Made by a program: the position numbers and the translations under genes
Shown here: positions 4,563-4,835 of the stretch, piece after piece
How positions within the stretch are numbered: position 1 is the first letter of the stretch
Layout of the letters: every line of letters begins with the position of its first letter
Assembly: GCF_055900595.2 (NCBI RefSeq)
Contig: NZ_CM148325.1
Strand: one strand, 5' to 3'
Length of the DNA stretch: 64,000 nt
Notes under the pieces: model-generated
Database searches by the model: none
Seen by the model: the letters and a program-made list of their open reading frames with translations, nothing else
Told to the model about the DNA's origin: nothing

Positions 4563-4835
4563 ATGCCTGATGCGACGCTTATCGCGTCTTATCAGGCCTA
4601 CAGGTTTTACGTAGGTCGGATAAGGTGTTCACGCCGCATCCGACATTGAGTGCATAATGCCTGATGCGACGCTTACCGCGTCTTATCAGGCCTACAGGTT
4701 TCACGTAGGTCGGATAAGGCGTTAACGCCGCATCCGACATTGAGTGCATAATGCCTGATGCGACGCTTACCGCGTCTTATCAGGCCTACAGATTTCACGT
4801 AGGTCGGATAAGGCGTTCACGCCGCATCCGACAAA
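4563..4835. repeat. BIME/REP array: 2.9 tandem copies of a 94-bp unit, each containing two inverted REP palindromes
   Basis: Unit ATGCCTGATGCGACGCTTA(T/C)CGCGTCTTATCAGGCCTACAGGTTT(T/C)ACGTAGGTCGGATAAGG(T/C)GTTCACGCCGCATCCGACATTGAGTGCATA repeated at about 4563, 4657 and 4751; the third copy is truncated. Confidence 0.9.

Follow-up and report, generated by a model that had tools for sequence, protein, structure and literature searches.

Two classes of BIME are distinguished (Ton-Hoang et al., PMC3333891). BIME-1 elements pair a z1 with a y REP in single copy and have a long L linker, often with an IHF site. BIME-2 elements pair z2 with y in multiple tandem copies; their S linker is short, and the flanking motifs are of the s, l or r type. 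The number of BIME-2 copies per locus differs among strains, possibly via TnpA-REP (PMC3333891). IHF binding is a property of the long L linker of BIME-1 (PMC3333891; PMC2817692), while a subset of BIME-2 is enriched in gyrase cleavage sites, which lie preferentially in Y REPs (PMC6379681). The Rfam model RF02564 (naRNA4) derives from REP325, a twelve-unit Z2/Y array. REP325 is a partly Rho-dependent terminator as well as an mRNA stabiliser and gives a ladder of hairpin-ended RNAs (bioRxiv 10.64898/2026.03.23.713779). According to the same preprint, REPs between convergent genes accompany a higher expression of both genes. The effects of REPs depend on the context, and terminal REPs do not generally lengthen the half-life of mRNAs (bioRxiv 10.64898/2026.03.23.713779).

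The closest described relative of the array reported here is REP171 of E. coli K-12 MG1655, a single Z2-S-Y unit (2443790-2443869) in a 120-bp intergenic region. Its name is taken from the preprint tables; the NC_000913 record shows only CDS features in this region. The functional data on the locus (3'-end overlap, Rho peak and bicyclomycin sensitivity) were obtained by others on the one-unit allele of K-12. They were taken from Harris et al. 2026 (bioRxiv 10.64898/2026.03.23.713779), whose supplementary Tables 15 and 16 collate three earlier data sets. In Table 16, row 190 classes 2443832-2443873 as a bidirectional terminator, located between convergent genes and recorded for both log and stationary phase. 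As given in that row, its hairpin is the Z2 REP of REP171 (-23.9 kcal/mol), flanked by only 1 A and 2 U. Table 15, from the Rho-binding screen of Delaleau et al. 2022, places a peak at 2443697-2443835 on the yfcL-sense strand; this peak overlaps REP171 by 44-45 nt and lies within a bicyclomycin-sensitive transcript (2442731-2443800) of Peters et al. 2012 (via bioRxiv 10.64898/2026.03.23.713779). In K-12, the convergent 3' ends overlap by 42 nt, the two convergent RNAs have their ends on the Z2 hairpin, and Rho keeps the yfcL-sense RNA from antisense entry into mnmC. The source of row 190, reference 47 of the preprint, is presumably the SEnd-seq study of Ju et al. 2019.

In the window (the whole 64,000-nt stretch of DNA that was analysed), the orthologous gap holds three units. 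Tandem Repeats Finder, run over 3500-6000, reported a single array at 4563-4833 with a period of 94 bp, 2.9 copies, 96% matches, no indels and a score of 507. A second repeat search found three in-register 94-nt copies at 94-nt spacing (4558-4839). The third copy lacks the 14-nt inter-unit linker. Units 1 and 2 differ at 4 positions, and over the 83 nt in common with the truncated unit 3 there are 4 differences between units 1 and 3 and 2 between units 2 and 3. The sequence-only reading had described three near-identical, head-to-tail 94-bp units between yfcL and mnmC, each with two REP palindromes in opposite orientation. The description and its coordinates proved correct: both searches recovered the units, and two imperfect palindromes of opposite orientation were found in each of them. 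Its figure of 3-4 differing positions is roughly right, the pairwise counts being 4, 4 and 2. The convergent setting that it had proposed agrees with the ORF list and with the RefSeq annotation of genome Z0117EC0005 (Table 1).

The stop codons of yfcL and mnmC are separated by 309 bp (4542-4850). The array occupies most of this gap and is therefore extragenic. The first REP begins 23 nt downstream of the yfcL TAA stop codon (4539-4541), and 18 nt separate the end of PU6 from the stop codon of mnmC. Since the 309-bp intergenic length and the three-unit layout recur in seven independently assembled complete genomes, the array is real, and an assembly artefact was ruled out. A base-by-base comparison with the intergenic region of Z0117EC0005 revealed one differing base, located in the loop of PU4 (A at 4724, C in Z0117EC0005). 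RefSeq annotates no gene within the array in this near-identical genome. Two small minus-strand ORFs of 56 aa (4579-4749) and 41 aa (4673-4798) lie wholly within the array. They were rejected as by-products of the repeat, with peptides that repeat with the units, but automatic annotation could miscall them as genes.

Table 1. Features of the yfcL-mnmC intergenic region and its surroundings, in positions of the window
Feature	Position	Strand	Basis or remark
yfcL CDS, 92 aa	4263-4541	+	ORF list; RefSeq annotation of the 99.9%-identical genome Z0117EC0005
Whole BIME-2 array, 2.9 x 94 bp (Z2 - S linker - inverted Y - l linker), orthologue of K-12 REP171	4563-4833	.	TRF, repeat search, unit parsing
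PU1, Z2-type REP, GCCTGATGCGACGCTTATCGCGTCTTATCAGGCCTAC	4565-4601	+	34/37 to Z2 consensus; hairpin -21.3 kcal/mol
S linker 1, AGGTTTTAC, between two REP tails	4602-4610	.	Unit parsing
PU2, inverted Y-type REP	4611-4644	-	30/34 to Y consensus; hairpins -15.5 and -13.8 kcal/mol
First complete Y-l-Z2 module, RF02564 naRNA4 match	4614-4692	+	78.4 bits (gathering score 59.5)
Inter-unit l-type linker, ATTGAGTGCATAAT, 14 nt	4645-4658	.	Unit parsing
PU3, Z2-type REP	4659-4695	+	Unit parsing, consensus comparison
S linker 2, AGGTTTCAC	4696-4704	.	Unit parsing
PU4, inverted Y-type REP	4705-4738	-	Unit parsing, consensus comparison
Second complete Y-l-Z2 module, RF02564 naRNA4 match	4708-4786	+	81.9 bits (gathering score 59.5)
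Second inter-unit l-type linker, ATTGAGTGCATAAT	4739-4752	.	Unit parsing
PU5, Z2-type REP	4753-4789	+	Unit parsing, consensus comparison
S linker 3, AGATTTCAC	4790-4798	.	Unit parsing
PU6, inverted Y-type REP	4799-4832	-	Unit parsing, consensus comparison
C-rich, G-poor yfcL-sense RNA, antisense to the mnmC 3' end	4833-4950	+	39 C and 20 G in 118 nt
mnmC CDS, 668 aa, GTG start, convergent with yfcL	4851-6857	-	ORF list; RefSeq annotation

Each unit is composed of a 37-nt palindromic unit (GCCTGATGCGACGCTTAYCGCGTCTTATCAGGCCTAC in plus-strand reading), a 9-nt linker, a 34-nt palindromic unit (GTCGGATGCGGCGTKAACRCCTTATCCGACCTAC in minus-strand reading) and a 14-nt linker. The six palindromic units were scored against the three E. 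coli REP consensus sequences from the methods of PMC11208160. PU1, PU3 and PU5 agree with the 36-nt Z2 consensus at 34/37 positions, compared to 29/37 for Z1 and Y, and PU2, PU4 and PU6 agree with the Y consensus at 30-31/34 positions, compared to 24-26/34 for the Z types. Naming the three consensus sequences Y, Z1 and Z2 assumes that they follow the Bachellier/Gilson nomenclature. In all three units the orientation alternates, with the Z2 consensus on the plus strand and the Y consensus on the minus strand, and the CTAC and GTAG tails confront each other over the S linker. Linkers of 9 nt within a pair and 14 nt between pairs are of the short BIME-2 kind. The 14-nt linker ATTGAGTGCATAAT resembles the l linkers of REP325 and of the nadR-ettA BIME (10/14 identical to the latter). 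Tandem copies of strain-variable number at this locus complete the picture: the array has all sequence-level characters of BIME-2 and lacks those of BIME-1. It is an expanded allele of REP171 and thus of a kind already known.

The likeness to REP171 extends to position and sequence. REP171 is located in the orthologous mnmC-yfcL gap, its Z2 is identical to PU1 over 37 nt, and its Y, in matching orientation, differs from PU6 at 1/34 nt (CCGGC at the end in K-12, CCGAC in the window). The S linker measures 9 nt in both, although it reads ACGTCACAC in K-12 and AGGTTTYAC/AGATTTCAC in the window. The main difference lies in the number of units, namely one in 120 bp without an l-type linker in K-12, but three in 309 bp, joined by ATTGAGTGCATAAT, in the window. 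The flanking genes are 92-98% identical between the two. Identity to K-12 around the array is uneven (yfcA 92.5%, mnmC 93.7%, epmC 96.2%, fabB 96.6%, yfcL 97.9%; 2872-8236). Further along the window, a lone REP (GTAGGTCGGATAAGACGCGTCAGCGTCGCATCCGAC, 8243-8279) lies directly 3' of the fabB stop codon, at the position of REP170 in K-12.

REP325 (naRNA1-6, yjdM-yjdN), the source of RF02564, shares with the array the alternating tandem Z2/Y units, a short l linker and a location in the 3' UTR of the upstream gene. In contrast, it has 12 palindromic units between tandem genes, while the array has 6 between convergent genes, and the linkers are unlike (AACGGUGCCGACU in REP325, AUUGAGUGCAUAAU in the array). 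The strong gyrase sites at sucC-sucB and tldD-yhdP belong to the same BIME-2 class, and Y REPs are preferred for cleavage. Cleavage concerns only a subset of BIME-2 elements, and the supplementary tables of the Topo-Seq paper that were searched mention neither yfcL nor mnmC nor REP171 (PMC6379681). The statement of the sequence-only reading that such arrays bind gyrase is thus documented for a subset of the class but not at this locus. Gyrase binding at the yfcL-mnmC array is a family-level expectation, by analogy with which gyrase may act here.

To determine the copy number in other strains, positions 4500-4900 of the window were used as a query against 5,426 complete E. coli genomes. With at least 80% query coverage, 17 genomes were retrieved. 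Seven carry three units (span 401 bp) and six carry two (307 bp). EC42405 carries four units in a 403-bp intergenic region (432 bp, partly aligned), and three close relatives carry one unit (213 bp). Multi-unit alleles (2-4 units) are hence present in 14/5,426 genomes, all from one rare divergent lineage, and every such allele carries the flank haplotype of the window. Nearly all remaining genomes have the one-unit allele (span 699 for an 888-nt query), and in some E. coli the intergenic region is only 55 bp long, with one Y REP. The allele series at the locus comprises 0.5, 1, 2, 3 and 4 units, which bears out the earlier statement that the copy number of such arrays varies between strains: the strain comparison gives a single REP or 1, 2, 3 or 4 units. 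In an unlinked 12-kb segment (30000-42000), identity to the window is at least 99% in exactly 18 of the 5,426 genomes and at most 97.5% in all others; the window therefore stems from a rare, divergent E. coli lineage. Sixteen of these 18 genomes are among the 17, with 2013C-4282 and WL297 left out at the yfcL-mnmC locus, and 2EC1 stands outside the 18. The unit expansion is specific to this one lineage.

Strains of the lineage carry the S-linker variants in differing orders, and the one-unit allele of 2EC1 combines a Z2 of the unit-1 type with an S linker of the unit-2 type. Judged from these sequences, the shuffled unit variants show the pattern expected of repeated unequal recombination between units. 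An origin of the extra units by local flank duplication was ruled out. As the inter-unit linker ATTGAGTGCATAAT matches neither flank, the extra units are not a simple duplication of a K-12-like locus. No exact donor of the inter-unit junction was found elsewhere in E. coli with a 63-nt junction query. The closest match was the nadR-ettA BIME with 89-92% identity, whose 14-nt linker ATTCGGTGCTCAAT is the nearest E. coli relative of ATTGAGTGCATAAT. In the nadR-ettA region of E. coli PS200 (474-641), the RefSeq gene 'nadS' (NadS family protein, 55 aa) terminates within a Y-type REP, so the C-terminus of its product is repeat-encoded.

A different change is found in the orthologous intergenic region of MS6193 (2780-4178), where the Z2 tail is interrupted by IS621, a member of the IS110 family with a bridge-RNA recombinase. 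The junction reads ...ATCAGGCCT / IS / ACACG.... The published natural IS621 target ATCAGGCCTAC has exactly three occurrences in the 64-kb window, all of them in the array (4591, 4685 and 4779), and each added unit therefore provides one more landing site for IS621.

The RNA fold of the unit, which had been proposed as a check, gave stable hairpins on both strands. The REP hairpins range from -15.5 to -21.3 kcal/mol on the plus strand and from -13.8 to -20.4 kcal/mol on the minus strand. The Z2 hairpins reach -21.3 (plus) and -20.4 kcal/mol (minus), the Y hairpins -13.8 to -19.2 kcal/mol. Compared to units 2 and 3, PU2 has a C-to-T change at 4626 that results in a G.U in the plus-strand RNA. 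The intergenic region as a whole folds better than its shuffled versions (z = -10.4 on the plus strand and -11.05 on the minus strand; 0/100 shuffles as good). A terminator scan of 4542-4850 found no U-tract or T-run after any hairpin on either strand. Without a U-tract behind the hairpins, any termination here would be Rho-assisted or due to processing, not intrinsic. A promoter scan found no promoter-like site in or beside the array, and an independent small-RNA promoter inside it was rejected on this basis. Beyond the array, the C-rich segment at 4833-4950 appears to correspond to the K-12 Rho-binding peak and is a candidate Rho-loading RNA. The missing U-tract, the downstream excess of C over G and the missing promoter-like site fit a Rho-assisted stop better than an intrinsic terminator. 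By homology to K-12, PU1 is the putative hairpin at which both convergent transcripts end.

The array is thus very probably a three-unit BIME-2, an expanded allele of REP171, that forms a stable hairpin barrier and a Rho-assisted stop for the convergent transcripts. It sits where the 3' regions of the aroC-mepA-yfcA-epmC-yfcL operon and mnmC coincide, and either transcript entering it would form a row of stable REP hairpins. These hairpins would stop 3'-to-5' exonucleases, by which the upstream mRNA would be stabilised. They would also pause RNA polymerase, and Rho, loading on the C-rich RNA just beyond, would end transcription before it enters the neighbouring gene in antisense. Because three units provide six hairpins, compared to two in K-12, the barrier should be less leaky, and the three-unit allele would act like that of K-12 but more strongly. 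The two sets of 3' ends that overlap on one hairpin in K-12 would be separated in the three-unit allele. At the DNA level, the Y REPs would be plausible transcription-independent gyrase sites, the number of units would shift by recombination between them, and the Z2 tails would act as insertion targets for IS621. The sequence-only reading had assigned such arrays a role as terminator and mRNA-stabilising structures. The published data on one-unit REP171 in K-12 support this role, but the type of termination, which would be Rho-assisted for lack of a U-tract, had been left imprecise.

A further way in which REPs may act was considered for the same region. Liang, Rudd and Deutscher reportedly described in 2015 a translation effect of REPs located within about 15 nt of the stop codon. 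The gaps to the two stop codons, 23 and 18 nt, exceed this distance, and a stop-codon-proximal control of translation is therefore unlikely.

Other readings of the array itself differ in how much of the evidence they can accommodate. An intrinsic reading, with the array as a pair of Rho-independent terminators, would agree with the stable, GC-rich hairpins and with the K-12 orthologue being among the listed bidirectional terminators. However, the scan of both strands gave no hairpin in the array with a T-run behind it, the K-12 entry has flanks of 1 A and 2 U, and the yfcL-sense read-through in K-12 is bicyclomycin-sensitive. A U-tract is also absent from most REPs, and we regard this reading as very unlikely. 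The array could also be an IHF-binding BIME-1 (RIB/RIP) element, as binding of IHF had been claimed in the sequence-only reading. IHF-binding RIB elements have been described for REP pairs at the 3' ends of transcription units (Boccard and Prentki 1993, as reported in PMC3333891), and the array resembles BIME-1/RIB/RIP elements in having an inverted REP pair with one Y-type member at such an end. These elements, however, consist of a single z1 and y REP with a long L linker that carries an IHF site, whereas the array has Z2 and Y REPs, linkers of 9 and 14 nt and three tandem units. The IHF consensus WATCARNNNNTTR has no match in 4542-4850 at 0 or 1 mismatch, with about 0.5 chance matches expected at 1 mismatch. 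Since IHF sites are features of BIME-1 and the consensus is without a match, the statement on IHF does not apply to this BIME-2 array, and a BIME-1 element can practically be discounted.

The array might instead be a gene for naRNA4-like RNAs, in which read-through from yfcL would yield two-hairpin Y-l-Z2 RNAs that bind HU, bridge REP cruciforms and condense the chromosome. Both RF02564 matches (Table 1) cover model positions 1-77 of 77. They align as Y hairpin, l linker and Z2 hairpin, with ATTGAGTGCATAAT on the linker of the model, and lie on the yfcL-sense strand only, the antisense strand scoring under the threshold. Complete Y-l-Z2 modules exist in multi-unit alleles only, and the naRNA4 of REP325 binds HU and reportedly condenses DNA in vitro and in vivo (PMC4550694). 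The threshold is passed, however, because the model was built from another BIME-2. RF02564 represents one BIME-2 repeat and is matched by any Z2/Y array, for example by a second one in the window. The match confirms the BIME-2 class and is by itself no proof of an sRNA gene. Moreover, deletion or over-expression of REP325 left the nucleoid volume unchanged, a stable HU-cruciform-naRNA4 complex was not observed, and Hi-C was without REP-REP contacts (bioRxiv 10.64898/2026.03.23.713779, with S. Verma and S. Adhya as authors in common with the naRNA4 work). With no promoter-like site in or beside the array either, a function as an naRNA4-like gene is highly improbable, and the hairpin barrier with a Rho-assisted stop remains the preferred reading. 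The extra units, in turn, may be neutral selfish or slippage DNA that arose by chance in this lineage, through recombination or the activity of a REP-associated transposase (RAYT). In this view, one unit or even a single REP would suffice for the needs of the locus. Two to four units are confined to 14/5,426 genomes of one rare lineage, in which the copy number ranges from 1 to 4 and the unit variants are shuffled, and elsewhere in E. coli the locus shows one unit, only a Y REP in a 55-bp gap, or an IS621 insertion. A variable BIME-2 copy number is also general, possibly driven by TnpA-REP (PMC3333891). The extra units may add nothing that is selected, because more than 99% of the genomes have one unit or a single REP and one strain tolerates an IS. 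On the other hand, this view is compatible with the hairpin barrier as regards the first unit, and in REP325 more hairpins give a ladder of termination or decay products, so that dosage can matter. The differences between units fall in loops, linkers or the G.U position and are too few to demonstrate selection. A neutral origin of the extra units is therefore a serious possibility, at somewhat less than an even chance.

The second BIME-2 of the window (17600-17780) also contains Z2 and Y REPs, and its naRNA4 match of 81.9 bits falls at 17649-17719. The ORFs on either side of this element (16921-17601 and 17936-18424) share one strand and, judged by position, are probably dedD and cvpA. In addition, the nuoG RNA motif (RF01748) was matched at 48480-48522 with 50.3 bits (gathering score 33).

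The class of the element, the REP171 locus, its role at convergent 3' ends and the variation in copy number are all already in the literature. For annotation, a match to the Rfam model naRNA4 flags a BIME-2 repeat, which need not be an sRNA gene. That the three-unit expansion is a lineage-specific regulatory change, which creates two Y-l-Z2 modules and places the convergent 3' ends about 190 bp apart, is an unlikely but defined possibility. If true, the lineage might have an altered expression of the yfcL operon or mnmC or an altered antisense interference, or it might make stable two-hairpin RNAs that are absent from ordinary E. coli. The natural series of 0.5 to 4 units in similar backgrounds could be used to test how the number of REP hairpins relates to termination and mRNA stability.
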